Shown here piece by piece: positions 3,001 to 57,641 of a stretch of 64,000 nt of DNA. The notes under the pieces were generated by a model. The model saw nothing but the letters and a program-made list of their open reading frames with translations. It did no database searches and was not told the origin of the DNA. The translations under genes and the position numbers were made by a program. Within the stretch, counting starts at the first letter, position 1. Every line of letters begins with the position of its first letter. The DNA comes from Actinomycetota bacterium (GTDB lineage: Bacteria > Actinomycetota > Aquicultoria > SURF-47): NCBI GenBank assembly GCA_003599235.1, contig QZJE01000013.1, positions 540-64,539 on the forward strand, written 5' to 3'.

Positions 3001-6000
3001 CGTCGCTGGCACTGCCGGCATTAGGATTACCATAGTACATATAGATTGTCTTATTAGAGTTAGCTTTTATCTCAGGTACCTTAATCCATACTATGGCCTC
3101 TTCTGAGCGCTTATAGCTTTCTATCCAATAGTTAAGCTCAGCTACCCCGTCTGAGTCAGTAAAACGCAAGTCCGAGAAGTTATTCTGCATTTTGCTGACA
3201 TAAGGTACTTTTACTTTAATTTGATAGTCGGTTAAGGTGCTTGAACTATCTTTATTGTCTACTTTTAAGCTAGCCCTATTGGGCCAAGCCTGGCCATACC
3301 ATTGCTTAGTGGTAGTAGGATTGCCAGAAATGACAGGAATTAAACCCAAGTCTGAACCAGAAAAACCGTTTCCATTGCTTTGACTATTTGCTTCGGGATT
3401 TCCGTAGTACATATATATGGTTTTTATCGAAGTGGCTTTAATTAACGCAACTTTTACCCATACAGTAGCTTGCTTGGAGTCTGTTTTATCTTCTATCCAA
3501 TAAGGTAGCTCAGTTTGTTTGTTGGAGTCAGTGAAACGCAAGTCGGAAAAGTCGGCCTTCATGCCGGTGTCGTAATCGATGCTTATCTTAACCTGGTAAT
3601 CAGTTAAGTCCTCGGGGTTATAAAGATTATTAATCATCAACGGAGCTCTTCTAAGCCAAGCTGAATCGTACCAGGTGTCTGGATTAGTGGGAGTGTTATT
3701 ATCGCCTTGTAGAACTAGCTGGCCGTTGGCGGGGTCGTGATAGGCGTTAGCGTTCTTGCTGTTCCATAGCACTGGGTTAAATACTGAGAAGTCGTCTGCA
3801 AATAGATCATAGAGGCCGCTAGACTCCTTAGCAACTGACTTAATGATATTGCCGTTCTTATCGTAGTAATAGCGGTAGGTTGATAGTTCATCTACCCCCT
3901 GAGCTCCGTTGTCCCTAGCATTGCTGATTGAAGTTAGCTTGGAAGCAGCATCGTAGTCATAGTTAGTAATTAAACTGCTTAATGCATTGAGGGGACTGGT
4001 TATTTGGTCGATATTATTGCTCTTGCCGCCTTTGTCGTAGGAGAAATCAGACAGAGTTTTGCCACTATTATTAGAAATATAATCAAGCTTACTACTTGAA
4101 TTATATTCGTACCTCGTTTCAACCGTTGAATCGTTAATATTCTTTATTTTGTCATCTGGATCATATTGGAAATTAATAACTTTGTTCGAAGCATCTTTAA
4201 CGCTACCAATCATGTCATCATTGTTATATCTATATTCATATGATGTTTGAGATTGACCACTTGCTGGATTCTTAGTTACAGTTTCTACTAAATTTCCCAT
4301 CCAGTCGTATGAATTTTCTACGTCAACACTAGACTGTATATTTCCTTCGGCGTTCAGCTTAGTTAGGTTGCCAGCACTATCATAGTTTAGGCTTTGATTT
4401 TTTTCATTTGGTTGAATAATGTTCTCAGTTAAACCCGAATTATTGTAGTTAGTTTCAACTGTTTTTACGTTTTGATCGGTTTCAGTAGTTACCTGATCTG
4501 AAGCGTTATAGGCGGCAGCTGTGGAGGTGTTGTCCGGAGCGATTACTTTAGTCTCGTTTTGATTATTATCATATTCATAGTTTGTTTTATTTAGACTTCC
4601 ATCTTTAACAGTAGACAAGTTGTCGTTTTGATTATAGTTATAGCTAACTACATTATTTTTACCGTCAGCCGTTGTTCTTTCGTTTCCCTCCTTATCATAA
4701 GTAGTTTTAGTAACATTGCCAGTTTGATCCCCCGTAGCTACTTCATTGCCGGCTTTATCGTACAGACTCACTGAAGTACCTTCAGGGCTTCCCTGCTTAG
4801 TAACGTTACCAAAGCTATCATAGGCATATGCGGTCCAGTTACCGTCAGAAGCAGTTTCTTTGATTAAGCGGTTTAGTTTATCGTATTCATAGGTAGTCTC
4901 ACCATTGCGAAAGTTGTTAATTTCTTTTGTTTTGTTTCCATTTTCATCATACTGATAAGAATACCTAGCCCCTTTTTTATTATTTTTCTCTAATAGCTGA
5001 CCTGCCACATTGTATGAGTAGGTATTATAGCCCTTGGTGGTCGAGCTTCCATCGGTATTGTTGTTAAAGGCCTGAACAAAAATAACATTACCTGCAGCAT
5101 CATAAGTATTTTCAGTAACTGAATAGTCTCCGTTATCATTTGCCGGCTCTTTTTTTCTAATAACTCTTCCAAGTTCATCATATTCGGTGAGACTAAAGTC
5201 CATCCCTGCTTTTTGTTCTTTAGTTTTTCTGCCAAGTGAATCGTACTCAAAGGCAGTACTTACGCCTACCGGGTCTATTGTTTCTATGATATTGCCAAGA
5301 GCATCGTAACGATTATTAGCAACTCCTCCTTCAGGAGTTGTTTGAGTTACTTGATTGCCATTGTCGTCATAGGCATAGCTAGTAGTATTGTTATCAGGGT
5401 CAGTCTCTGATAAAAGATTGCCTTTGTCGTCGTAAGTGTAGTTGGTAGTCTTACCTGTCGGCGTGGTTTCAGCCAATACCAAGTTCTGTTGATTATATGA
5501 GCGTTCAGTAACCCTATGTCTGGCACTATAGCGAGCTTGGTCAGCGAGATATATTTGCTCATCTTCATTTGCATCATGGTCATGATTGATTTCTTTTAGC
5601 ACATTACCATTTGCATCGTATTCATAACTAGTAAAAGTCTTATCCTTATTAATCTGTTTAACAAGATTGTAATCGTTATCATATTCAAAATAGCATTCGC
5701 TGCCATGCTTAAATGGCTGGCTAAGCTCGGCGGAGGGAATATTTTCTTTAGCAAAGGCCGGGCCCCAGATATCGTTCCATAGTTGCTTTTTCTCCCACTG
5801 GATTTCTTTCCTGGCTACCACTTCAGCCTCTAAGTCATCAGCATCTTCGTCAAAATCATCGTAGGATTCATCTAGCCAATCGAGGTCTTCTTCATCTAAT
5901 CCCAGCTCTTCTTCATAGAAATCTTTATAGACCGTATAGTAGACAAGATATTCATGAGCAATTTCTTGCTCAACTGAGGCTCCCGGAAAGAAAGGTTTTT

Positions 6001-8722: not shown

Positions 8723-11436
8723 TTTTTCACCTTTACTTTGATAGCTTTTGAGTTGCTAGCCTTAAATCTTTGTTCTCCGGCAAAGACTGCCTTGATTGTA
8801 GTTGTTTTTCTAAAACGGATTGCTTTGGCAAAAACTCCCTTGGAATTGGTTTTAGCTTTAGCAATTACCCTCCAGACCCACTCTTTAGCCCTAATTGTTC
8901 TGCCATTAACCTTCTTTTTTATAATACGTAAGGCTTTGGCTTTAAAGTTTATCCCTTTATTAGCCAGTGCTCTGCCATTGCTATTTTTTAGTTGGCCCTT
9001 AATAACGGTTTTTTGACCTGCCTTTATTACATATTTCTTGGCTGCTATTGATAACCTGGTGCCAAGAACTTTTATTGCCGGAGAAGGGTTGATTGGATTA
9101 ATGTTTGGGGCTGGAGCACTGGGAGTAGGGCTTAGAACTGGTAGGGCTATTACTACCAAGGCTTGTGTAGCCTCATCAGATGAAGCTCCTTCATCATCTA
9201 TCGCTATAAACTTAATTACATGTGGACCTATCGATAGATTATTAGCATTAAAGCTGATTGCTCTAGAAAGCTCTCCATCGACTGAAGAAGTCCAAATATA
9301 TTCATCAATATCGCCATCTTCATCATTAGCGCTGCCTATAAAACTAACACCTTGGCCCTGAATTGCAGGATTAGGAGTTACAGACTCAATTTTAGCAGTT
9401 GGTTTTTTATTGGTTTGAGCAATAACGGTTACTTCTGTTTCGGCTTCGCTTGACCATAGCCCGTCATCATCTTTAACTTTGAAATATATTGTATGCTGAC
9501 CTGGCGATAAATAATCAGTATCAAATGACTTTTCATCTGAGAGATCATCGTCTATGGAAGAACGCCAACTATACTCGGCGATGCTTCCATCTGAATCATC
9601 ACCATGGCCACTAAAATAAACTGCCTCTGCCTCATTAACAGTTTCCGGGCTTGCTAAATCAATAACAGCAGTGGGTGGCTGATTCGGGGGTTGTATCTCC
9701 AAATTGGCAGATACTTCATCAGACCAAGCACCTTTGTTGTCCTTGACCTTTAAATAAATAGTATGTAGGCCGATTAATAAATCTCCTACACTAAACATCC
9801 TTAAGCTAGGAAGTGTTTCGCCCATAGAAGAGCGCCAGCTATATTCAACGATAGATCCATCATCAATTCCTAATGCTTCAAAAAAAATTGGTGTGTCAAC
9901 GTGCGCAGTTGTTGGATTAAGATAGTTTATCAAAGCAACAGGCTTTTGATTAATATCTATTATAGCGGAAACTTCATCAGAGAAAGCACCGTCGTTATCC
10001 CTAACTTTAAAGTAAATTGTATGGAGTCCAGGAGGCAGGTTGTTAATAGCAAAATCTTTTTGATTTGATAAAGGTCCATTAATGGAAGAACGCCAGTAAT
10101 ATTCTGTTATACTCCCATCTGTATCTAGTCCGCTGCCACCAAATGAAATATTATCCCCCTGGTTAGCTGGGTTAGGACTAATGAGATTTATAGTAGCCGT
10201 TGGAGCTTGATTAATTACCTCTAGAGTGCTAGACGCTTCATCTGACCACTCACCCTCACTATCTCTTACCTTAAAATATATAGTGTGAGCACCGACCGAT
10301 AAAGTACTGGTATTAAAACTGGCTTGATTAGATAGTTGCCCATCTATCGAAGAACGCCAACTGTACTCTCTAATTATTCCGTCTATATCATTTCCCATAC
10401 CATCAAAAGCTACACCTTGCTTTTGAAATGCAGGATTTGGAGTTATCAAATTTATTATAGCGGTTGGTTTTTGGTTGTTAATAATAAAGAGTTTTGTATC
10501 ATCAGCTGTTACTACTTGAGTTGAAACGTTAATTAAATCTGCATTCTCAATTGTTTGAGATGCCTTGTAATATTTTGTTTTATATACTTGGGCATCATCA
10601 TAAAACCTTAGTTTGTAATTACCATTTCGAAGGCCATTAAGCTGATAATTACCCTGAGAATCGGTTGAAGTACTGAATAAATAAGTCGAATTGGCATCAA
10701 ATAAACCGACTTCAATATATTCAAGAGGCTGGTCAATGTTATTTGTAACTTTACCTATTATTTGAGAAGGCACCTCTAATTCAGCATTAATATTCTCTAA
10801 TTCTTGAGTAGAGTTTAAGTGAACAGAGCTAGCGCTAGTAAAATCTGATTTATCATTATAATATTCATAAGCGTAGCTATCTGCTAAAAATAAGACCTTG
10901 TAATCCCCGGAAGGTAAGGCGCTTATTTCATAGCTTCCATTGGACTCACTATATCCAGAGCTAATATAATGGCCATTTAAGTCAAAAGCAGATATCTCAA
11001 CATTTTCAACAGGCAAGCCGGCGTTGTCTGTGACAACTCCTTTTATCAAAGACGCTGGCTCTAAAATACTATTATTAATACTAAGGCTTGAACCGTTACT
11101 AAGCGAAATTGAATTAGCTTCTTCTAGACAATTGCTGTTTTGATAAAATTTTATTGCATAATAGCCAGTGTAATCGATGAATTTGATTTTATAATTACCG
11201 TCGGCTAAATCTGTAAAAGTATAGTTGCCGAAAAAGTCAGTGAATTGAGTATCGAGTGGCTCTCTATTGCTATCAAATATAGTCACTTCGATTTCTTCTA
11301 TTGCTTGGCCAGATGCATTGTTGACTTTCCCGGTAATTGAACCTGACCCTAAACCATAAGAAGGATTACTAAATAATATAAGAGATAAAGCTATTAATAT
11401 TATAACCAAGCCCAACTTCTTTAGATGCATGTACAA
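8719..11436 (-). CDS. Secreted repeat protein: signal peptide, three Cna-B / carboxypeptidase-regulatory-like domains, six ~88-aa PKD-like repeats, Lys/Arg-rich C-terminal module
   Basis: 905-aa ORF. Repeats of the form KPTA.INLI.PNPA.QG..V.F.G.G.D.DG.I.EY.WRSS..G.LS....F....L..G.HTIYFKV.D..G.WSDE occur six times. Track start is TTG at 11436; an in-frame ATG at 11430 is the more likely start. Confidence 0.8.
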   Translation of the reverse strand: MYMHLKKLGLVIILIALSLILFSNPSYGLGSGSITGKVNNASGQAIEEIEVTIFDSNREPLDTQFTDFFGNYTFTDLADGNYKIKFIDYTGYYAIKFYQNSNCLEEANSISLSNGSSLSINNSILEPASLIKGVVTDNAGLPVENVEISAFDLNGHYISSGYSESNGSYEISALPSGDYKVLFLADSYAYEYYNDKSDFTSASSVHLNSTQELENINAELEVPSQIIGKVTNNIDQPLEYIEVGLFDANSTYLFSTSTDSQGNYQLNGLRNGNYKLRFYDDAQVYKTKYYKASQTIENADLINVSTQVVTADDTKLFIINNQKPTAIINLITPNPAFQKQGVAFDGMGNDIDGIIREYSWRSSIDGQLSNQASFNTSTLSVGAHTIYFKVRDSEGEWSDEASSTLEVINQAPTATINLISPNPANQGDNISFGGSGLDTDGSITEYYWRSSINGPLSNQKDFAINNLPPGLHTIYFKVRDNDGAFSDEVSAIIDINQKPVALINYLNPTTAHVDTPIFFEALGIDDGSIVEYSWRSSMGETLPSLRMFSVGDLLIGLHTIYLKVKDNKGAWSDEVSANLEIQPPNQPPTAVIDLASPETVNEAEAVYFSGHGDDSDGSIAEYSWRSSIDDDLSDEKSFDTDYLSPGQHTIYFKVKDDDGLWSSEAETEVTVIAQTNKKPTAKIESVTPNPAIQGQGVSFIGSANDEDGDIDEYIWTSSVDGELSRAISFNANNLSIGPHVIKFIAIDDEGASSDEATQALVVIALPVLSPTPSAPAPNINPINPSPAIKVLGTRLSIAAKKYVIKAGQKTVIKGQLKNSNGRALANKGINFKAKALRIIKKKVNGRTIRAKEWVWRVIAKAKTNSKGVFAKAIRFRKTTTIKAVFAGEQRFKASNSKAIKVKVKK

Positions 11437-16837: not shown

Positions 16838-18592
16838 TCAGCAATTAATGTCTGAATATAATTTATCTATTGCTTCTCTGTAAACGTTGCCGATTTTGTC
16901 TCTGTTTATACTACTGTCGTCGTTTAGAAAACGGTTGTCTTTTGTAAATTCATTCCTTAGTAGTTCGAACTTCTTAATTTGCTCATGTCTGGAAAAACCT
17001 TTTAGCTGCTTATTAATCTCAGCTTGGATAAACTTCCTAATCTCTTTATTCTTTACAATCTCTCTCTTTCTATTCAACCCGAATTTTCGGCTAATCTGCT
17101 TATAATCTGGAACAATTAAGGCAGCAATGTGTTTTTTATCATCCCCAACAACTGCTGCCTGCTTAATATATTTACTAAGTGTAACTTCTGCCTCTATAGT
17201 CCTGGGAGAGACATTCTTGCCGGTAGAAAGCACAATTACTTCTTTTTTCCTTCCAATAATCTTTAAGTAGCCTTCTTCGTCCATCTCGCCTAGATCGCCC
17301 GTCTTAAACCAGCCATCATCCAGTATCAATTGAGGCCCACAGCCATTTCCATAATAGCCCTTCATGATTCCCGGCCCCTTAATTAGCACCTCACCATCAT
17401 CAGCAATTCGAACGCTTGTATTAGGCAACGGGTGGCCAACTGTGCCAATCTTATAATCATCCGGCTTGTTCACTGACACTATAGGCGAATACTCCGTCAG
17501 CCCGTACCCCTCTAACACAGGAACGCCACTAGCATCAAAGAACATCCCCACCTTGGGGTTAAGAGCAGCCCCACCAGATATCATAAATCGCAGGTTGCCG
17601 CCAAGTGTATTACGTATCTTTCTATAAACCAACGCATCATATACCTTGTATTGAAGCTTCTTTCTGTTCTCTTTTTTACTGCCATACTCGATAGCTTTCT
17701 TAGTTACTTTGCTCAACAACTCTTTGGAGTTAATCTGCTGCACAATGCGTTGATACGACTTCTCATAAAGTCTCGGAACACCAATAATGACTGATGGCTT
17801 ATGTTGCTTAACAACAGGAGTAAATTTCGCAATATCAGTCAAATAAGCAATACTTGCCCCTTGCATTAATGGAATGTAGTATCCTGCCATCTGCTCAAAA
17901 GCATGTGATAGGGGTAAAATTGATAAAAACTTATCGTCTGGTCTGATGTATACATTACCTAAAGTGCCTTCGGCGTTCGAAATAATGTTCTTGTGGCTAA
18001 GCTCTACTCCGCGGTATTTGCCGTTTGGGCCGATGGTAAAGATAATGCTGGCGGTATCATACTGGTCAATATCAGCTATTAAATCCCTGTACAATTCACT
18101 GTGATTATCATGTGGCATAAGCTTAAGGGCTTCAATAAAATGGCATTTATCGTTTTTGAACTCAGATAAATCCTCTTTAAGCTCCACATTATAGTAAAGA
18201 AGCATGACCTTTTTCTCAATTTCCTTCTTAATACCAATAAGCTTAGCTAGCATGCGTTTTTCTGAAACTATAATAACCTTGGGGTCAATCTCTAAAATAA
18301 TCTCTTTTATCTGATCTGCGGTTAATGTGGTGTGTATGGGGGCAAAAATAGCTCCTAAGCTGATAGCTGAGAGGTCTGATACTACCCACTCTGGCCTGTT
18401 CTCGGATAAAATAACAACCCTGTCTCCCTTCTTGACTCCTAATTTTTCCAAGGAAAGAGTAAAGTTTTCTACTAAATTAAGAAGACGCCTGTAAGTTACT
18501 TCGCCGAATGTATGGCCGTCTTTGTATATTAAGCAGGGGTTTTCCGGATTATTAGTTGCACTCTTTATAAATGCCTGGGGGATAGTATTCAT
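16838..18592 (-). CDS. Long-chain acyl-CoA (or acyl-ACP) synthetase, AMP-forming
   Basis: 584 aa. Adenylate-forming enzyme motifs (GGAALNP..., YGLTEYSP, KTGDLGEMDEEGYLKIIGRKKE). Confidence 0.8.
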   Translation of the reverse strand: MNTIPQAFIKSATNNPENPCLIYKDGHTFGEVTYRRLLNLVENFTLSLEKLGVKKGDRVVILSENRPEWVVSDLSAISLGAIFAPIHTTLTADQIKEIILEIDPKVIIVSEKRMLAKLIGIKKEIEKKVMLLYYNVELKEDLSEFKNDKCHFIEALKLMPHDNHSELYRDLIADIDQYDTASIIFTIGPNGKYRGVELSHKNIISNAEGTLGNVYIRPDDKFLSILPLSHAFEQMAGYYIPLMQGASIAYLTDIAKFTPVVKQHKPSVIIGVPRLYEKSYQRIVQQINSKELLSKVTKKAIEYGSKKENRKKLQYKVYDALVYRKIRNTLGGNLRFMISGGAALNPKVGMFFDASGVPVLEGYGLTEYSPIVSVNKPDDYKIGTVGHPLPNTSVRIADDGEVLIKGPGIMKGYYGNGCGPQLILDDGWFKTGDLGEMDEEGYLKIIGRKKEVIVLSTGKNVSPRTIEAEVTLSKYIKQAAVVGDDKKHIAALIVPDYKQISRKFGLNRKREIVKNKEIRKFIQAEINKQLKGFSRHEQIKKFELLRNEFTKDNRFLNDDSSINRDKIGNVYREAIDKLYSDINC

Positions 18593-18746
18593 TATTGCCC
18601 ACCATCTAATGAACTTACAATTAAGTTATTTATTTTCCCATTTCGAGTAAACATAACATAACCTGGCGAGGCAATTATTTACCGCTAAATTGCAGTATAG
18701 AATATTAATTGTACCAAAAAAGTAAAAATATGGCAACAAAGCAGTA

Positions 18747-18774
18747 CTTGGTGCTTGGTTCTTGGTACTTGGTG
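18747..18774. repeat. Heptanucleotide tandem repeat CTTGGTN x4
   Basis: CTTGGTG CTTGGTT CTTGGTA CTTGGTG, perfect 7-nt period, ending 1 nt before the hicA stop codon. Confidence 0.85.
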
Positions 18775-18775
18775 C

Positions 18776-18997
18776 CTAGAGGAGCTTTTTAAGAGATTCT
18801 TTTTTTACATTTGCTCTTTTTAGAATAGCTTCTAATGTGCCCTTTTTTAAGTCTTTACTATGATAAGGAACAGGAATGGCTTTCTTAAGCTCTTCATTGA
18901 CCATAATTACATGACTACCAGTTTGGCGCTTAACATAGAAGCCAGATTTCTCTAGTACTTTAATTACCTGCTTCGGCCTTAAGGAAGGAGTTTTCAT
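18776..18997 (-). CDS. hicA: HicA-family toxin (mRNA interferase)
   Basis: 73 aa. Matches the HicA pattern K.LEK.GF...RQ.GSH......VP.H..KDL.KGTL..IL. Overlaps hicB by 4 bp. Confidence 0.8.
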   Translation of the reverse strand: MKTPSLRPKQVIKVLEKSGFYVKRQTGSHVIMVNEELKKAIPVPYHSKDLKKGTLEAILKRANVKKESLKKLL

Positions 18998-19212
18998 GCA
19001 GCAGTTATCTTTACATCAACTGTCTCTTCTTCTATCTTAGGTGGTTTCCAGCCCATTTCTTCCATAGTCTCAAGATACCCCTTGATAGCATCTTTGATAT
19101 TTTCTAAAGCCTCCTTTTTAGTGTCGCCCTCAGATACAACATCTGGAAGTTTTGGTACAAATACTGTATATCCACCTTCTTCTTGCCTTTCAAGTATCAC
19201 TTTGTATGTCAT
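18994..19212 (-). CDS. hicB: HicB-family antitoxin (UPF0150 fold)
   Basis: 72 aa. MTYKVILERQEEGGYTVFVPKLPDVVSEGDTKKEALENIKDAIKGYLE matches the HicB N-terminal consensus. RBS AGGAGGG upstream. Confidence 0.8.
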   Translation of the reverse strand: MTYKVILERQEEGGYTVFVPKLPDVVSEGDTKKEALENIKDAIKGYLETMEEMGWKPPKIEEETVDVKITAA

Positions 19213-19281
19213 TACTTTTCCCTCCTATAGTTATCATACCATAGCCTAGCTGGCATAACAAAGTAAAAAGGCTTGCTTCAC

Positions 19282-19295
19282 GGTCAACGGTCAAC
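19282..19295. repeat. Heptanucleotide tandem repeat GGTCAAC x2 (TTGACC family)
   Basis: GGTCAACGGTCAAC in the 335-bp intergenic region upstream of hicB. Confidence 0.6.
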
Positions 19296-19547
19296 TAATC
19301 CCATAGAAATTCAAGCTTTTCCAATAATTTGCCGATAGATAGTTTATATATTTTGCCGTAGGAGTGATTTAATTGTTTAAGAGAGAGCAAGTACGTACGT
19401 CCCGCCCTTTTTCTGAGACTAAACTAGAGGTTTGGCTTAAAAAAGTCGGCATGAAGATTCTAAAAGCCACTGGCTGGGATTACTACCTATTTCCGTAAAT
19501 TAGCCTTCATTATTTCAATATTTACTCTAGAACAAGCCTTAGAAGAA

Positions 19548-19772
19548 TTAATAAAACAAGTAAAGAACTACAGAAGTTATGGCGAAGATGATGGCTAAGA
19601 CTATGGTTATGCGGTTCAAGTTTCGCTCAATGATGGTGGTGCCGGAAAAACCGCTGGCCATAGCACCGCCGAAAGCGTTAGATAAGCCTGCCCCTTTGCC
19701 GGAATGAAGTAGGACGGCAAAAATCAAGCCGATGCAAACTATAACGTGAATAACAATGACTGCCTTTATCAT
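19548..19772 (-). CDS. secG: Preprotein translocase subunit SecG
   Basis: 74 aa, two TM segments, LLHSGKGAGLSNAFGG motif. Confidence 0.7.
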   Translation of the reverse strand: MIKAVIVIHVIVCIGLIFAVLLHSGKGAGLSNAFGGAMASGFSGTTIIERNLNRITIVLAIIFAITSVVLYLFY

Positions 19773-19784
19773 AACTTAGATACT

Positions 19785-21197
19785 TTACCCTACTTTTGCA
19801 GCACTTTCAATTCTTTTAATAGATTTTTGTTTTCCGAAAAGGACAAAAATATAGAAAAGTTCAGGGCCTTCTGTTTTGCCTGTTAAGGCGCACCTAACCG
19901 GCATAAAAACGTCCTTACCCTTAATCCCTTGTTCCTTCATCTCTTTGCTTAAGGATTTAAGTACTGCCCTGGCCTCATCGTTATTATCAACCCTACTGGC
20001 CCCCAAAACCTCAACTAATTTAGCTAACACAGCTTTAGAAGTATCTTTTTCCAACCACTGCTTAGCTTCCTTGGTTATCTTTAAGGGTTTAAAAAATAAC
20101 TCAGACTGCACTTTAGCATCGGCTAAAGTAATATAGTCGTCCCTGGTAGCCTCAACCATCTTAATTAACCATTCTCTGCTAACTTTCTTAACCTCATCCT
20201 TGGCAAGAAAGGGAATTGCCATCTGCGTTAACTCTTCTAAGGGATAACTTCTTATATGCTGACCGTTTATCCAGTTGAGTTTGCCTATATCGAAAATAGC
20301 AGGACTTTTTGATAATTTTTCTAAGCTAAAATACTGCATAAGTTCTTCCGGCTTAAATATTTCTTGTTCTCCAGCGGGAGTCCAGCTAAGCAATGCCAGG
20401 TAGTTAATAACAGCTTCATGCAGATAACCGGCTTCCCTATACTGAAAAACAGCGGTTGCTCCATGGCGCTTAGAGAGCTTACCACCATCACTGCCCATAA
20501 TAAGCGAGTGATGGGCAAACTTAGGAATATCGTATCCTAGAGCTTTAAATAAAAGGATGTGTTTAGGAGTATTAGGCAAATGATCATTTCCCCTGATAAC
20601 ATGGCTAATCTTCATTTCTGCGTCATCAACTACCACTGATAAATGAAAGGTGGGCATACCGTTGCCGCGCAAAATGATAAAGTCTTTTATATTTGCCGTA
20701 TCAAACTCAGTAGGGCCATAGACGATATCGTCAATGACTATTTTTTCTTTAGGAACCCTAAATCGTATGGCCGGATTTACTCCTTTAGCTGAAGCATCAA
20801 GTTGATCCCTGCCATCTAAACCCAAACAATTGCAAGTTTTTTTATTTACAGAATCGACTTTGGACTGCTCTCCACAATAACAATAATACGCCTTGCCGTC
20901 AGCAACTAGTTGTTTAGCTTTGCTTTTATAAAGTGATAACCTGCGGCTTTGACGGTAGGGGCCAAAGCCCCCTTTTCCCGGACCTTCGTCGTAGTTTAGG
21001 CCAAGCCAGCTAAGATCTTCTAAAATAGATTGCTCAAACTCCGGAGCCGACCTTAGAAAATCGGTATCTTCAATCCTAACTATAAAGTCGCCCCCATGAT
21101 GCTTAGCAAAAAGCCAATTGTACAAAGCAGTACGGGCTGAGCCTAAATGCAGGTTGCCAGTAGGAGAAGGAGCGAAGCGTACTCTTATATTACCCAT
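19785..21197 (-). CDS. gltX: Glutamyl-tRNA synthetase
   Basis: 470 aa. HIGH-type motif PSPTGNLHLGSARTA and KMSKS-type KLSKRHG. Confidence 0.9.
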   Translation of the reverse strand: MGNIRVRFAPSPTGNLHLGSARTALYNWLFAKHHGGDFIVRIEDTDFLRSAPEFEQSILEDLSWLGLNYDEGPGKGGFGPYRQSRRLSLYKSKAKQLVADGKAYYCYCGEQSKVDSVNKKTCNCLGLDGRDQLDASAKGVNPAIRFRVPKEKIVIDDIVYGPTEFDTANIKDFIILRGNGMPTFHLSVVVDDAEMKISHVIRGNDHLPNTPKHILLFKALGYDIPKFAHHSLIMGSDGGKLSKRHGATAVFQYREAGYLHEAVINYLALLSWTPAGEQEIFKPEELMQYFSLEKLSKSPAIFDIGKLNWINGQHIRSYPLEELTQMAIPFLAKDEVKKVSREWLIKMVEATRDDYITLADAKVQSELFFKPLKITKEAKQWLEKDTSKAVLAKLVEVLGASRVDNNDEARAVLKSLSKEMKEQGIKGKDVFMPVRCALTGKTEGPELFYIFVLFGKQKSIKRIESAAKVG

Positions 21198-21217
21198 TGA
21201 CCATTGACCTTTTACCC
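21197..21217. repeat. Heptanucleotide tandem repeat TTGACCA TTGACCT TTTACCC (TTGACC family)
   Basis: Fills the ispF-gltX intercistronic spacer and abuts the gltX ATG. Confidence 0.6.
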
Positions 21218-23906: not shown

Positions 23907-24000
23907 ACTTACACCTCAAATTAAAGGCTATATTTGTTTAGTTATTACCAAACAGCCTAGTACATTAATTATACCACTTAAGCAGCTTTTTTGTAAATCT

Positions 24001-24022
24001 AGGCACGGGGACCTGCCCCTAC
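24001..24022 (-). repeat. REP-like GC-rich element (GTAGGGGCAGGTCCCCGTGCCT on minus strand)
   Basis: Same GTAGGGGCAGG head as the REPs flanking the RAYT gene at 61.4-62.0 kb. Sits in the carD-divergent intergenic region. Confidence 0.6.
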
Positions 24023-24113
24023 ATAATTGCACCACCCCTCGTATATTCATCTTTATCTAATTCCTGTTTCCTGTTGCCTGTATCCTGATATATAATTGCA
24101 ACCAGGAGGTAAT

Positions 24114-24509
24114 ATGAAGAAGAAGGAAGCTCAAGAACTACAAGAAGCCGTATCTCATTTCTTGGTTAGAAACCGCAGTATTCTTGATGTAATGGCAAAA
24201 TTCGCCGAGTCTAATGCAAAGGTAAACAGCGCTATTGTTAAGTCGGTAACTCACTGCGGCTGCTTAGAAATCGATGCCTCAAAGCAACCGATTCCCGAAG
24301 GAACTAGTATCGCCGAGATGCTTTCTTATGTCCAAAGCCATATTAAAGGGAAGTTGTGTGATAACTGCCGTCAAATATTAGAAGAAGATATCGGCAACAG
24401 CCTTTTTTACTTAACCGGTATTTGTGCCTTATTAGACCTTGACTTAGAAGAGATCATGAAAAGTGAAAACTCTGCCATTTCTACTTTGGGAGTTTATTCA
24501 CTGACTTAG
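24114..24509 (+). CDS. Hypothetical small protein with two Cys pairs (HCGC...CDNC)
   Basis: Track start is TTG at 24096; AGGAGG at 24104-24109 followed by ATG at 24114 suggests the shorter form. Converges on disA with 4-bp overlap. Confidence 0.5.
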   Translation: MKKKEAQELQEAVSHFLVRNRSILDVMAKFAESNAKVNSAIVKSVTHCGCLEIDASKQPIPEGTSIAEMLSYVQSHIKGKLCDNCRQILEEDIGNSLFYLTGICALLDLDLEEIMKSENSAISTLGVYSLT

Positions 24510-25579
24510 ACGTATCTTTCCATCAAAGATGCTTCTCTGAAACGCCTAAGCGAATCATGTATTTCTTTGGCCCTGGATTTAGCAACCCCGGGCACTTCTT
24601 CTAAGTCCGTTGCCTTAGCTAATAAAACAGCTTGCAGGGAGCCGAATTTATTAACTATTTTATCAATAACAACTAAAGGCAAACGGGGCACTTTCTTCAA
24701 AACCCGGTATCCGCGGGGATGAATGTTTGTATCTAAAATGCTGATGTCGCCATCATAGCCCAGAGCCTTGGCAATATTTAGCAGATCAAGCATTTCCTCG
24801 GAAGTAAGCCTTTTTAATTGAAGTTTAATTTCTTCGATATCATGTTTAGGCTTAGCATAGTCCTTAATAATAGCTAAACTATGCTCTGGAATATTTGCCA
24901 GTAGCTCCTCAGACTGAACCTTGATTAATTTTCCTTCACTTCCTAATTCATAGACATAACGGTTAATCTGGTCTGCCACCCGCTCTACCATAAGCGAGCG
25001 CTGTAAAACGATAACAACATCTAATAAAGTTACTAAGTCCTCATATTCGAGAGCACCTAAATTAGCATCAACCTGTTCTAGGCGCGTTTTGTATTTTTCA
25101 AACGCTTGTAGGGCTTGATTGGCTTTTGCCAGAATACTTCTGGTATCTCTTAAAATATACTTAATGTTGTCCACATATAGCGTCACAGATTGCCGCTTTT
25201 GAGAAACAGAAATTACCAAAGCTTTGGTTTGTTTGGCTACCCTCTCTGCTGTTCTGTGCCTCATTCCGCTCTCACTTGTATATATTGAGGAATCAGGAAC
25301 CAGATGAACATTGGAACGCAGTATTTGGTTAAGCTCGCTGTCCATGATGATTGCGCCATCCATTTTCGTAAGTTCATATAAGCGTTGGGGGGTAAATTGA
25401 CAATACAGCTCAAAGCCTCCGTTACTCATTTTAAGCACGTTTTCGGTATCGCCAATGACAATTAAACCACCTGTTTTGGCACTAATAATATATTCGATTG
25501 CCTCGCGCAAATCAGTCCCCGGTGCGATTTTTTTAAGCGCATCAGCTAACATTTGCTGTTTTTGAGTTCTTGTTGTCAC
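24506..25579 (-). CDS. disA: DNA integrity scanning protein DisA (diadenylate cyclase)
   Basis: 357 aa. DGAIIMD and SGMRHRTAER motifs, C-terminal HhH region. GTG start with AGGAG upstream. Confidence 0.85.
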   Translation of the reverse strand: MTTRTQKQQMLADALKKIAPGTDLREAIEYIISAKTGGLIVIGDTENVLKMSNGGFELYCQFTPQRLYELTKMDGAIIMDSELNQILRSNVHLVPDSSIYTSESGMRHRTAERVAKQTKALVISVSQKRQSVTLYVDNIKYILRDTRSILAKANQALQAFEKYKTRLEQVDANLGALEYEDLVTLLDVVIVLQRSLMVERVADQINRYVYELGSEGKLIKVQSEELLANIPEHSLAIIKDYAKPKHDIEEIKLQLKRLTSEEMLDLLNIAKALGYDGDISILDTNIHPRGYRVLKKVPRLPLVVIDKIVNKFGSLQAVLLAKATDLEEVPGVAKSRAKEIHDSLRRFREASLMERYV

Positions 25580-25598: not shown

Positions 25599-25620
25599 CC
25601 TTCAGCTCTTCAGTCTTCAG
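25599..25620. repeat. Short tandem repeat CTTCAG x3 (periods 8 and 7)
   Basis: CCTTCAG CTCTTCAG TCTTCAG, 20-40 nt upstream of the disA start. Confidence 0.5.
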
Positions 25621-25629
25621 TCTCTATCC

Positions 25630-26970: not shown

Positions 26971-26998
26971 AAGTTAATAATAGCATAATGAGCAGGGG

Positions 26999-27023
26999 GT
27001 AGGTGGTAGGAAGTAGGGAGTAG
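26999..27023. repeat. Heptanucleotide tandem repeat GTAGGNN x4
   Basis: GTAG at 26999, 27006, 27013 and 27020, exactly 7 nt apart, ending at the clpC stop codon. GTAG is also the head tetranucleotide of the REP elements in this window. Confidence 0.7.
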
Positions 27024-39503: not shown

Positions 39504-39797
39504 AGCCTCAAGCAGTAAGCTGTAAGCTTATGGCTCATAGCTTCAACCACTTACCCCTCTTAACCAGGCATTTAAATCGTTTATTTTTAAAAAAACATCA
39601 TATTTTCTAATTTTATGGGTAAAAACAATAACCGTAGCTATTGATAATTAACGGAGGTTGCAATTTCTCATATTGATTTTCCTGATGGGGTAATACCTTT
39701 TACTTATTGCATAATCGGCTTTGTTTTAGCCGGCATTGTACTAGCTGTTTGCACGCGTAACACTGAAAGCAAATTAGTTAGAAAAAAGGTTCCTTTA

Positions 39798-51312: not shown

Positions 51313-51372
51313 AAATTACAAATCGTAAATTCCAAATTACAAATAATATCGAAATTCAAAATTCCAAACATT
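51313..51372. repeat. AT-rich heptanucleotide tandem repeat AAATTNC, about 8 units
   Basis: AAATTAC AAATCGT AAATTCC AAATTAC AAATAAT (atcg) AAATTCA AAATTCC AAACATT in the 135-bp spacer between the two transketolase subunit genes. Confidence 0.7.
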
Positions 51373-51429
51373 TTAATTGGGATTTGATACTTGTAATTTA
51401 TTTGCTTTTTGGTGCTTGGTTTTTGAGAT

Positions 51430-52260
51430 TTATTCATCTAGTTCATCCTCACTTACACCAAGTTCCAATAAGGCCTGCCTGACTTGTTCTTTATTTGGAG
51501 CTACTCCATGCCAATCTACTTTGTTTTCCATAAATGAGACCCCTTTGCCTTTTACCGTATGGGCCACAATCATCGAAGGTTTTTCTTTAACCTTTTTGGC
51601 TTTATCTGCCGCCTCTATTATTTGGTTAAAATCATGGCCGTCGACCTCAAAGGTTTGCCAGCCAAAAGCTTCCCATTTTTGAGCTATTGGTTCCAGAGAA
51701 CTAATATCGCAGGTCTTGCCATCAATTTGCAATCCATTGTTATCCAGAAAAACGATTAGATTATCAAGCTTGTGATGAGCAGCAAAAATAGCAGACTCCC
51801 ATATTATTCCTTCTTGGCTTTCGCCATCCCCGATTATGGAATAGACATGATGATCTTCTCCATCCATCTTACCTGCCATCGCCATACCCACAGCAGTAGA
51901 GATACCTAGTCCAAGTGAGCCAGAACTCATATCAATTCCTACCGTGCGCCTTAAATCAGGATGGCCTTGTAAGCTGCTTCCCAGCTTACGCAAAGTCCAA
52001 AGTTTCTCTCTTGGAAAAAAAGAGGCCTCAGCTAAGACCGCATATAAAGCAGGACAAGCATGGCCCTTAGAAAGCACAAAGCGGTCTCTATTTTTCATTT
52101 TAGGGTTTTTAGGGTCAACATATAAAATCTTGAAATATAAAGCACAGAGAATATCAGCGCATGATAGCGAGCCACCGGGATGCCCCGAACCAGCTAGGCC
52201 TATCATTTTAATAATATCTTGTCTTATCTTAGTAGCTTTTTCTACAAGCTCGCTGTGCAT
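51430..52260 (-). CDS. Transketolase, N-terminal (thiamine-diphosphate-binding) subunit
   Basis: 276 aa. TPP-binding GDGESQEG motif. Confidence 0.85.
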   Translation of the reverse strand: MHSELVEKATKIRQDIIKMIGLAGSGHPGGSLSCADILCALYFKILYVDPKNPKMKNRDRFVLSKGHACPALYAVLAEASFFPREKLWTLRKLGSSLQGHPDLRRTVGIDMSSGSLGLGISTAVGMAMAGKMDGEDHHVYSIIGDGESQEGIIWESAIFAAHHKLDNLIVFLDNNGLQIDGKTCDISSLEPIAQKWEAFGWQTFEVDGHDFNQIIEAADKAKKVKEKPSMIVAHTVKGKGVSFMENKVDWHGVAPNKEQVRQALLELGVSEDELDE

Positions 52261-52428: not shown

Positions 52429-53142
52429 TTAAGAACCTAAGAAACTAGTGAGTCTATCAAGGCTAATATTAATTATTTTTTCTTTATCTATGCCAACCTT
52501 ATCAATTAAGGCCAGGGCAGCTTCAAAGCTACCTACCCCGCTAGCTAGATGAGCATCGCTATTTACAACAATTTCATTGCCCACTTCCAAGACTGCCTCT
52601 GCCAGTTTTAAATCGAGATCATAAGCTCCATGCCGGCTAGTTGAGGGCAAATATGAGCTGTTATTAAACTCAATAGCTACCCCTAAATCTTTAGCTGCTT
52701 TAGCCAGTTCCATATAATCAATAGGGAAAAGAGGGTTGCCGGGGTGACCCACAATATTTACCGATTTATGGCTAATAGTTTTTATCATTACTTCAGTATT
52801 TTCTTTGGCACTTCTGCTTTCATAACCACAATGTGAATGAAATGTAGCCAGTACCACATCCAAAATATCGAGCAACTCATCTTCTAAATCCAGCTCTGCC
52901 TTTGAATTAATTATATTTGCTTCTGCCCCTTTAAGAATCCTTACCCCTTGTATTTCCTGAGGTAATATACGCAGGTTCCAAAAATGATAGGGGTGGGCTC
53001 CCCCGGGCAAAGCCGGCCCATGGTCAGTTATAGCCACCATTTTTAGCTTACGTATAAAAGCCGCTTTAGCTATCTCATTAACAGTTGAGAAAGCATGCCC
53101 CGAAGCTACTGTATGAACGTGTAAGTCAGCAATTATCTTCAT
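52429..53142 (-). CDS. PHP-domain metal-dependent phosphoesterase
   Basis: 237 aa. N-terminal DLHVHT motif. Confidence 0.75.
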   Translation of the reverse strand: MKIIADLHVHTVASGHAFSTVNEIAKAAFIRKLKMVAITDHGPALPGGAHPYHFWNLRILPQEIQGVRILKGAEANIINSKAELDLEDELLDILDVVLATFHSHCGYESRSAKENTEVMIKTISHKSVNIVGHPGNPLFPIDYMELAKAAKDLGVAIEFNNSSYLPSTSRHGAYDLDLKLAEAVLEVGNEIVVNSDAHLASGVGSFEAALALIDKVGIDKEKIINISLDRLTSFLGS

Positions 53143-53158
53143 CTGTCATCCTTAATTT

Positions 53159-53224
53159 GGTCAACGGTCAATGGTCAACGGAAGTAATATTTTACTTTGA
53201 CCTTTAACCTTTACCCTTTGCCCT
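53159..53224. repeat. Inverted pair of heptamer arrays: GGTCAAC GGTCAAT GGTCAAC (53159-53181) and TTGACCT TTAACCT TTACCCT TTGCCCT (53197-53224)
   Basis: Strict 7-nt period. The second array overlaps the last codons and stop of prfB; the first lies 17-40 nt upstream of the PHP gene start. Confidence 0.8.
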
Positions 53225-54311
53225 GCTCTGATGGTACCTCACAATAAAATCCTGTATTTCGCCATCTAAAACCGCATCCACTTTTCCAGTCTCAAGACCG
53301 GTTCGGTGATCTTTAATCATACGGTAAGGATGAAGCACATAGGAGCGAATTTGGCTGCCCCAAGCAATTTCCTTTTTCTCTCCCTTTATTCTGGCAATTT
53401 CTTCGGCTTTTTTTTCTAGCTCTAGCTCATAGAGCTTAGCTTTTAGTATTTTCATAGCCGTATTACGGTTCATAAGCTGGCTTCGCTCATTCTGACACGA
53501 AACCGTAGTTTTTGTGGGAGTATGAGTTATACGAACTGCAGAATCAGTCACATTAACATGCTGGCCTCCGGCCCCCGAAGAACGGTAAGTCTCTATTCTT
53601 AAATCCTTAGGGTCGATATTTACTTCAACTTCTTCATCAACAACCGGAGTTACGTCAACTGAAGCAAAAGAGGTATGGCGCCGCTTAGAAGCATCAAAAG
53701 GCGATATGCGTACCAGGCGATGAACCCCTTTTTCTGCTTTTAGCAAGCCATATGCATTTTTGCCAGATATTGTAAGAGTAGCACTTTTTATTCCTGCTGC
53801 TTCTCCGGGAGAAACCTCATTTAGGATAGCATTGAAACTTTCAATTTCAGCATATCTTAAATACATCCGAAGCAGCATATTAGCCCAATCCTGGGATTCG
53901 GTTCCTCCTGCCCCCGGATGAATCTCTACAATAGCATCGTGGCGATCGAGGTCGGAAGTAAACCAGGCTGATATTTCCAGGTGATTTAATTCGTTGGTGA
54001 TTTTACTTACTTGCTGCTCTACTTCTTGGGCAGTTTTTTCGTCTTCTTCGCTTATAGCCAGCTCATTTAGCACTTTTAGATCTTCAATTTTTAAAGACAG
54101 CCCGTTGTACATATCGATATCGTCTTTAATATCTTTGATTTTAGAGGTTATCTTGGTAGCTTTTTCTTGATCTTCCCAAAAACCAGACTCTGTGGTTTTT
54201 GCCTCTAGTTCTTTTAGGGATTCTTCTTTTGCATCAGGGTCAAAGATAGTCCTTTATCTGGACTAAGCGTTTATGTAATTCGTTAATTTTCTCAGAACAA
54301 TCAATTATCAT
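53204..54311 (-). CDS. prfB: Peptide chain release factor 2, expressed through a +1 programmed ribosomal frameshift
   Basis: ATG at 54311..54309, 23 codons (MIIDCSEKINELHKRLVQIKDYL), then CTT TGA C (rc of 54245..54239). The +1 frame continues DPDAKEESLKELEAK... with no stop into the track ORF 53204..54112, which contains SGAGGQHVN (GGQ motif). AAGGA lies 3 nt upstream of CTT. Confidence 0.85.
54239..54245 (-). other. prfB: prfB +1 frameshift site CTT TGA C
   Basis: Plus-strand GTCAAAG at 54239..54245. In-frame UGA after 23 codons with the canonical shifty CUU codon. Confidence 0.8.
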
Positions 54312-57059: not shown

Positions 57060-57641
57060 CTATTGCCTAAATGACCCATTGACCGTTGACCGTCTTTTTC
57101 CTCTATATACCATGCAATTTTGCAGATAAAGAAAAGCACCGATGGTAATAAATACATCCCCGGCACTAATAAGGCTAGGCAGAGGATAGGGTTTGGGAAT
57201 TGGGATTATGTCAGCTAAAAAGGGAAGACGCGTTTTAGCAGTTAGAATAACGTGCTTGTAGTCAGTTAGAAAAGATTTTTTAAAGGCGCTTAGGTCTTCG
57301 CCAATAAAAGCTGCTGATTTAGCAGATACCGGCATGCCCCCGTTTAGGGCAATTACGACAAAATTTAAAGTAGCTCCGATAGCTATCAGCAACAAAAAAT
57401 TATTCTCTTTTCCGTTTATAAAACTAGCAAATATCAACAGAGCGTATGTTGCCAAAAGAAGTGCAAAATTACTAACGGCAGGCATTGGCAAGCTGGCCCC
57501 AAAAAAAACCAATCCAACCTGGATAAATAAAGCGATGATAATAAGATAGTCGAAGCGGATTCTTATGGTATCAAGCCTGGATAGCGAGCCTCCCCTAAGA
57601 TAGCCCACCACAATCGCTAGCACCACCCCTAGCTCAATCAT
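57060..57641 (-). CDS. Hypothetical polytopic membrane protein
   Basis: 193 aa, about five TM segments. The 3' end of the ORF contains a TTGACC heptamer array. Confidence 0.5.
   Translation of the reverse strand: MIELGVVLAIVVGYLRGGSLSRLDTIRIRFDYLIIIALFIQVGLVFFGASLPMPAVSNFALLLATYALLIFASFINGKENNFLLLIAIGATLNFVVIALNGGMPVSAKSAAFIGEDLSAFKKSFLTDYKHVILTAKTRLPFLADIIPIPKPYPLPSLISAGDVFITIGAFLYLQNCMVYRGKRRSTVNGSFRQ
57072..57092. repeat. Heptanucleotide tandem repeat TGACCCA TTGACCG TTGACCG (TTGACC family)
   Basis: Within the last codons of the 57060..57641 ORF, about 190 nt upstream of secA. Confidence 0.6.

Follow-up and report, generated by a model that had tools for sequence, protein, structure and literature searches.

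Immediately behind the stop codon of a hicA toxin gene in an uncultured Actinomycetota MAG (40% GC) stands a tandem array of four heptamers, and the question that this locus raises is whether such an array acts on the neighboring transcripts or promoters or is a heptanucleotide SSR with no sequence-specific role. The window analyzed here, by which we mean the whole 64-kb stretch (64,000 nt) of this genome, carries the array at 18747-18774. Read on the plus strand, its units are CTTGGTG (18747-18753), CTTGGTT (18754-18760), CTTGGTA (18761-18767) and CTTGGTG (18768-18774), and on the minus strand, which is the sense strand of the flanking genes, they read CACCAAG TACCAAG AACCAAG CACCAAG, a tract of 82% A+C. 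A preliminary description of this DNA had reported a perfect 4 × CTTGGTN array abutting the hicA stop codon, and the sequence agrees on both counts: TRF returns a period of 7 with 4.1 copies, the periodicity scan finds the same array, and a single base (C, 18775) separates it from CTA at 18776-18778, the TAG stop codon of hicA.

The array stands out clearly from the background of the window. The two-unit pattern CTTGGTNCTTGGT, allowing at most one mismatch, is expected 0.22 times per window, and has three overlapping matches within the array and one further match at 51408-51420. In a period-7 scan of the window the array takes the joint top score, and such scores are absent from shuffled sequences, so that head-to-tail 7-nt copies beyond chance, the defining feature of a heptanucleotide SSR, are present at this site. 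Of the 7 bases preceding the array (AGCAGTA), only the last GTA is in common with the unit, and we therefore read the locus as four units plus a degenerate remnant. The search for further CTTGGT arrays that had been recommended for the genome gave, in the 64-kb window, a single two-unit copy with one mismatch and no others; this copy, found by pattern search at 51408..51420, reads ACCAAGCACCAAA on the minus strand, lies 10 nt past the TAA stop of the ORF at 51430..52260, and has a chance probability of approximately 0.05-0.2. Within this scope, the lack of further copies that the preliminary description had listed among its refuting conditions is borne out in part.

The identity of the surrounding genes is well supported. 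The hicA gene (18776..18997, minus strand) encodes a 73-aa product with a match to Pfam HicA_toxin (PF07927, E 3e-21) that is 100% identical to a protein named HicA family toxin by NCBI, and it is overlapped by 4 nt by a hicB-like antitoxin gene (18994..19212, minus strand, 72 aa, Pfam PF15919, E 2e-10). A gap of 183 nt, whose first 28 nt are the array, separates this hicBA pair from an AMP-binding/acyl-CoA-ligase-type gene (16838..18592, minus strand; Pfam E 4e-71, with a matching C-terminal domain). No other gene stands between the array and the ligase gene, whose ATG lies at a distance of 154 nt, close to the 150 nt that had been given for the ligase operon. The best promoter-like match of the region, at 18708..18736 on the minus strand, consists of TTGCCA, a 17-nt spacer and TGgTACAAT with an extended -10 (10/12 positions, a consensus match only), starting 10 nt downstream of the array and approximately 110 nt upstream of the ligase ATG. 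Promoter-like matches number 5 in the region against 3.9 expected from shuffles, and hence are not enriched. If the 18708..18736 site is the ligase promoter, the array would be predicted to span about -46 to -73. On the other side of the toxin-antitoxin pair, a TTGACCG × 2.3 array (19280..19295, minus-strand reading; TRF and pattern search) precedes the hicB ATG by 68 nt and a promoter-like site by 21 nt, so that hicBA is bracketed by two different period-7 arrays.

A separate 14-nt inverted repeat with 93% complementarity joins 18706-18719 and 19150-19163 (TAATTGTACCAAAA and TTTTGGTACAAATA), with one arm over the predicted ligase -10 and the other within the hicB coding sequence; by a rough estimate, it is marginally above chance.

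We looked for the structures by which an element at this position might shape the hicA transcript, since a role in the 3′ end or stability of the toxin mRNA had been proposed for the array. No intrinsic-terminator-like site (a G+C-rich stem-loop followed by a T run) is found in 18300-19600. The minus-strand RNA fold across the hicA-ligase gap is no better than that of shuffled sequences (z = -0.56), and the same is true of the 81 nt around the array (z = -1.13), where the sole stem forms between array units and a distal UUUUUUGGUAC and encloses a loop of approximately 38 nt. Rfam gives no match at the gathering score anywhere in the window, and none at E ≤ 1 in 18500-19600. The array thus resembles the terminators and 3′-UTR hairpins that follow toxin-antitoxin operons in position alone, just past the last stop codon, and differs from them in having neither a G+C-rich hairpin nor a hairpin with a T run, and a fold energy like that of shuffles. 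The proposed 3′-end or stability element therefore found no terminator, no significant fold and no Rfam match to stand on. Nor does the array resemble a HicB operator. In the autoregulation of type II toxin-antitoxin systems such an operator is usually palindromic and overlaps the promoter upstream of the operon; the array lies downstream of the hicBA operon and is a direct rather than an inverted repeat.

Heptamer arrays are not confined to the hicBA locus. Counting arrays at one score threshold for periods 4 to 12 in turn, with shuffled sequences as a control, we found 11 period-7 arrays in the 64-kb window against 0.72 in shuffles, with 2, 3, 3, 1, 2, 0, 1 and 0 arrays at periods 4, 5, 6, 8, 9, 10, 11 and 12, respectively. 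TRF output shows the same tendency, with eleven of its 26 rows at period 7. For comparison, 467 kb of unrelated bacterial loci hold 6 period-7 arrays and 42-65 arrays at the coding-compatible periods 6, 9 and 12. Coding sequence takes up 92.5% of the window (counting a giant ORF at the left end), and 10-11 of 12 arrays fall wholly or mostly in the remaining 7.5%, where period-7 arrays account for about 5% of the intergenic bases. Such a concentration of arrays in intergenic DNA is expected if ORFs purge 7-nt indels. Within 64 kb, the window therefore shows both the period-7 excess and the non-coding concentration that mark the LSSR kind. The giant ORF itself occupies positions 1-8755 on the minus strand, comprises more than 2,918 codons and extends past the left end of the window.

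The units of these arrays vary by locus. TTGACCN is recurrent, and TTCCTGT, CTTCAGT, AGGNNGT, AAGCWGT and AAATTNC also occur; the arrays are short (2-4.6 units) and mostly imperfect. TTGACCN is found at 19282, 21197, 53159, 53197 and 57079; its pattern matches 8 times where 0.21 matches would be expected, and relative to transcription its TTGACC unit is sense in two cases and antisense in three. Both the locus-specific units and the two orientations of TTGACC argue against a single sequence-specific reader. An upstream stop codon lies within 10 nt of, or is overlapped by, 5-6 of 12 arrays. Runs of identical variant units are also seen, as in TCAGTCT × 2 followed by TCGGTCT × 2, or TCAGGAG × 3 followed by TCAGAAT ACAGAAT, and are expected when slippage copies a mutated unit. 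The preliminary description had grouped the array at 18747-18774 structurally with the TTGACC arrays, with wobble at the seventh position. Common class membership is borne out by period-7 arrays across the window and the lineage. The wobble is literally true of the four units and is not significant (p = 0.14); a permutation test of substitutions by column in 17 arrays from the window and its relatives gave no clustering beyond random (Fisher combined p = 0.54), and we rejected position-7 wobble as a structural rule or as evidence of constraint.

Unless noted otherwise, the further arrays were located by both TRF and the periodicity scan, and several of them fill much of the gap in which they lie. 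A GGTCAAT-type array (21194..21216, minus-strand reading) fills the whole 14-nt ispF-gltX gap and includes the TAA stop of ispF as well as the ATG of gltX. A CTTCAGT × 3.3 array (25600..25623), 6 nt past the upstream stop, sits in a 50-nt gap between ORFs of 446 and 357 aa (radA and disA by synteny with relatives), and an AGGNNGT × 4.3 array (26994..27023) directly abuts the upstream TAA stop in a 53-nt gap between ORFs of 830 and 446 aa (clpC and radA by synteny). A TTCCTGT × 3.9 array (24061..24087) lies upstream of a carD promoter-like site, an AAGCWGT × 2.7 array (39510..39528) is intergenic, and degenerate AAATTNC arrays (51313..51368), likewise intergenic, end 19 nt upstream of an ATG. 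A TTGACCN × 3 array (53159..53178, minus-strand reading) lies 17 nt upstream of an ATG, and the upstream gene takes its final codons and its stop from a degenerate TTGACCT-type array on the opposite strand (53195..53224). The gaps that hold the arrays at 21194, 25600, 26994 and 53159 measure 14-61 nt and are too small for a downstream promoter. The sole entirely coding array, TTGACCG × 2.1 (57079..57093; TRF and pattern search), lies in the last 11 codons of the ORF at 57060..57641.

Two of these places deserve a remark of their own. The arrays at 53159-53178 and 53195-53224 form an inverted pair, 16 nt apart, in the 61-nt gap between the ORFs at 53204..54112 and 52429..53142, and can fold as a hairpin (MFE -22.1 kcal/mol, z = -1.94). 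The gap at 23907-24505, between carD and the 357-aa ORF at 24506..25579 (disA by synteny), is unusually long at approximately 600 nt; besides the TTCCTGT array, it holds a near-consensus carD promoter (TTTACA-18-TGgTATAAT at 23997..23968, 11/12 matches) and a doubtful plus-strand ORF (24096..24509) with a weak DUF1573 match (E 9e-4) below the Pfam cut-off.

Relatives of the window were compared through GltX, encoded at 19785..21197. Named GltX relatives (at most 65% identity) are mostly Actinomycetota MAGs, with a few Firmicutes, and include Candidatus Oleimmundimicrobium of the class Candidatus Aquicultoria; the gene order clpC, radA, disA, carD, yacL, ispD, ispF, gltX in the window is as in the relatives. 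In one of these (L163, GCA_016208465.1; GltX 52% identity; 35% GC), 8 period-7 arrays occur in 14 kb, and in another (L165; GltX 49% identity; 41% GC) there are 5 in 21 kb, with 0-1 arrays at each other period. Three further related contigs (L164, L167 and L173) hold 2, 1 and 1 period-7 arrays, respectively, in approximately 20 kb each. The heptamer excess is a trait of part of the lineage, and the units change from genome to genome. Some contigs were compared with near-duplicates: the pairs L165/L166, L169/L170 and L173/L174 are 100% identical, and L171/L172 differ by indels outside the arrays.

Neither the arrays nor the hicBA insertion are conserved at the positions they hold in the window. 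In the closest relative compared (L168; GltX 65% identity, 2.5 kb), ispF and gltX overlap and no array is present between them, and secG follows gltX as in the window, with no hicBA after secG. The nearest HicA homologues (65% and 50% identity) stand in other contexts, with no ACCAAG array past their stop codons. The absence of arrays and hicBA from the closest relative, together with the other contexts of the HicA homologues, indicates that both the arrays and the hicBA insertion are evolutionarily labile. We also considered the array as part of a mobile hicBA cassette and rejected this, as the nearest HicA homologues have other downstream sequence without an ACCAAG array.

For the AMP-binding ligase and its neighboring aminotransferase, the best genome match is a contig labeled Candidatus Veblenbacteria (CPR; L001), with 61% and 40% identity, respectively, in the same order. 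No such array is found in the region upstream of the ligase orthologue in that genome. A CPR origin of the window was nevertheless rejected, since GltX and HicA are each 100% identical to a protein from an Actinobacteria bacterium MAG and the gene order is of the clpC-radA-disA-ispDF-gltX type. With the housekeeping genes thus indicating Actinomycetota, the Veblenbacteria-like affinity of the ligase and aminotransferase could reflect horizontal transfer or a mis-binned contig.

Beyond the lineage, an exact scan of metagenome contigs for CTTGGTN × 3 matched at least 120 contigs, and those listed range from 30% to 72% GC. None of the contigs listed is related to the window by DNA and protein comparison, and their seventh base is mostly uniform. 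The occurrence of CTTGGTN × 3 in many unrelated contigs indicates that the unit has arisen as a tandem repeat independently many times. Five of these contigs (L095, L114, L156, L085 and L135) are extremely rich in period-7 arrays, with 15 arrays in 11.7 kb of L095. Heptamer arrays beside hicBA also recur, with unrelated units: on an unrelated metagenome contig (L171, 2596-2680, and likewise L172), a distant hicBA, whose toxin is one of the nearest HicA homologues, is preceded by adjacent arrays of GATTTAN × 4 and then TGGTTGT × 3, which come after the stop of a histidine-kinase gene and before the promoter region of hicB. A collection of plasmids contained no similar DNA.

How do these arrays compare with heptamer systems already described? 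The STRR heptamers of heterocystous cyanobacteria, reportedly described by Mazel et al. in 1990 with the units CCCCAGT, TTGGTCA and CAACAGT, are alike in being intergenic tandem heptamers in a genome of approximately 40% GC where several families of units coexist. The GGTCAAN arrays of the window are one mismatch from two of these STRR units, and a TGGTCAT array in L165 is identical to TTGGTCA. CTTGGTN, however, is 2-3 mismatches from each of these units in all rotations on both strands and thus falls outside the STRR units, the arrays of the window have fewer copies, and the host is no cyanobacterium, its GltX being 100% identical to RJQ32088.1 from an Actinobacteria bacterium MAG. Heptamers of Calothrix are mentioned in PMC4692102. 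As summarized in PMC4679880 and PMC4692102, Mrazek, Guo and Shah (2007) found heptamers to be an over-represented long SSR class (LSSR) in many bacterial genomes, intergenic in location, and slippage was proposed as their origin. The arrays of the window share with this class, in so far as those two articles portray it, the head-to-tail 7-nt units, the predominance of period 7 among periods 4 to 12, the intergenic scatter and the presence of several units, and differ in being shorter (2-4.6 units), in being mostly imperfect and in their host, an uncultured low-GC member of the Actinomycetota. Our search of the heptamer-repeat literature, which was not worded for the lineage, returned no earlier report for this Actinomycetota lineage.

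TAACTGA repeats occur in marine Beggiatoaceae, some Cyanobacteria and some Bacteroidetes (MacGregor 2015, PMC4679880). Like them, the arrays of the window comprise 2-6 intergenic tandem heptamers, often in operon gaps directly upstream of start codons, as at 21194, 25600, 26994 and 53159. They differ in that many units coexist in the window, whereas in Beggiatoaceae TAACTGA dominates and related heptamers are rare (PMC4679880); CTTGGTN is at least 4 mismatches from TAACTGA, and the array at 18747-18774, set well back from the ligase ATG, is not adjacent to a start codon. Unit homology to STRR or TAACTGA was rejected: at most one mismatch separates the GGTCA-type units from these families (5 of 27 arrays, with 7% expected at random), and no other units, CTTGGTN included, are as close. 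G-quadruplex-forming heptamers are known as (GGGANTN)n in Xanthomonas and GGGGA(C/T)T in Nostoc (Rehm et al. 2015, PMC4692102). They are alike in having a conserved core with one or two free positions, four units as the commonest number and an intergenic location. Lacking runs of G or C, CTTGGTN/ACCAAGN can form neither a G-quadruplex nor an i-motif, and the AGGNNGT array at 26994-27023 is the only G-rich one in the window.

Taken as a whole, these observations make it probable that the array at 18747-18774 is a slippage-born heptanucleotide SSR of the LSSR/STRR kind, serving at most as an unstructured spacer and having no sequence-specific role. The period-7 excess, its confinement to non-coding DNA, the variety of units, the arrays in relatives and the lack of conservation are direct observations, whereas origin by slippage and neutrality are inferred. 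On this account, a 7-nt unit in non-coding DNA would have been expanded by tandem duplication or slipped-strand mispairing into an array, which a couple of point substitutions may later have blurred. The genome and part of its lineage would generate and tolerate 7-nt repeats specifically, and such repeats would persist where changes that are not multiples of 3 are harmless, namely in intergenic gaps and at the extreme ends of genes. Most probably, the array does no more than keep the hicA stop apart from the ligase promoter, as an unstructured stretch of DNA or RNA. Two observations go beyond what slippage alone would predict: units of 7 nt are favored, and TTGACCN comes back at no fewer than 5 loci in 64 kb. 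Three features of the array also speak against a mere spacer: its hexamer core is perfect in four of four units with three values at the seventh base, as a constrained core would produce (at p = 0.14, not a significant pattern), the array and the sole other copy of its unit both lie at most 10 nt from a stop codon, and the array is immediately upstream of the best -35-like hexamer.

A role at the RNA level, which we consider unlikely, would have the A/C-rich, nearly G/U-free tract CACCAAG-UACCAAG-AACCAAG-CACCAAG serve, unfolded, as a docking site for a protein that binds single-stranded RNA. Such a protein might be a cold-shock-domain protein (approximately 7 nt per domain), ribosomal protein S1 or Rho, whose binding on a hicBA or read-through transcript would set the 3′-end stability of the hicA mRNA or its coupling to the downstream operon. 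Consistent with this, the array begins 1 nt past the hicA stop, the A+C-rich tract has no stable fold, and several arrays lie in very short gaps of apparent operons and must therefore be transcribed. Binding of S1, Csp or CsrA has been proposed for TAACTGA arrays (MacGregor 2015, PMC4679880). The closeness of 5-6 of 12 arrays to an upstream stop codon points the same way, although in short gaps such proximity is trivial. Against an RNA-level role, the array sequences differ widely by locus, a strand-specific reader would not tolerate TTGACC in both orientations, and the array has neither a terminator or structured element nor conservation in relatives.

Less likely still is a role at the DNA level, in which the four hexamer cores would form an operator, an activator site or a spacing module for the promoter of the ligase operon, much as the preliminary description had suggested in calling the array a possible separator or operator. 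In its favor are the promoter-like match starting 10 nt downstream, the intact hexamer core, and the fact that promoter-like sites also follow two other arrays, TTGACCG at hicB and TTCCTGT at carD. The promoter-like matches, however, are hardly more numerous than in shuffles of this AT-rich region, the arrays in the smallest gaps leave no room for a downstream promoter, and the Veblenbacteria-like ligase orthologue is not preceded by such an array. A 7-bp period also sets successive sites on different faces of the helix, and contiguous 7-bp direct repeats are not known to be the target of any regulator family. An operator for the ligase operon has nothing in its favor but position, and the units, orientations and gap sizes of the other arrays disagree with it. 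For Nostoc, a preprint describes modest effects on regulation by heptamer arrays close to promoters; with arrays deleted, the recO promoter responded differently to LexA and NtcA (bioRxiv 10.1101/2022.06.06.494920). These effects, together with the 7-nt preference and the TTGACCN recurrence that go beyond slippage, lend the RNA-level and DNA-level accounts what weight they keep.

Improbable, and ranked below both of these, is a lineage-specific process of which the arrays would be the footprint or substrate: a replication or repair enzyme might duplicate stretches of exactly 7 nt, or a nucleic-acid-binding protein might recognize 7-nt registers irrespective of sequence. If true, such a process would shape nearly every intergenic spacer in low-GC, deep-branching Actinomycetota and might also underlie the cyanobacterial STRRs and the TAACTGA arrays of Beggiatoaceae; the array behind hicA would then have a function, spacing or insulating a mobile toxin-antitoxin cassette from the promoter that follows.

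Very improbable is a phase-variable contingency locus, in which gain or loss of units would shift the promoter spacing or phase between hicBA and the ligase gene and so switch expression. Promoter-adjacent phase variation by 7-bp repeats is known from some host-adapted pathogens, for instance upstream of hmw1A and hmw2A in Haemophilus influenzae. SSR-dependent phase variation in H. influenzae is the subject of PMC12721329. Interruptions strongly suppress slippage, which counts against such a mechanism in an array of only four, non-identical units. The array also lies upstream of the predicted -35, neither between -35 and -10 nor within an ORF. Chance similarity without any repeat-generating process is excluded. 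The hexamer CTTGGT is fairly common, occurring 49 times in the window where 30 would be expected, but four copies in phase greatly exceed expectation, and the array belongs to the excess of 11 period-7 arrays.

A slippage-born SSR that serves at most as a spacer thus being the probable reading, the array is a real feature of a known repeat kind and of low importance, and functional speculation about it is unsupported. On its own it matters little, and it should not be annotated as a terminator or operator. The wider pattern adds an uncultured Actinomycetota lineage to the bacteria with heptamer excess, alongside cyanobacteria, Xanthomonas, Burkholderia and Beggiatoaceae. As one more independent case, with intergenic regions that are short and densely packed, it could assist in telling mutational causes of the excess from functional ones. 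In practice, period-7 arrays are potential markers for strain typing and also a source of misplaced start and stop calls, as at gltX, whose ATG lies within an array. There, a second, out-of-frame ATG 7 nt off could mislead start calling.
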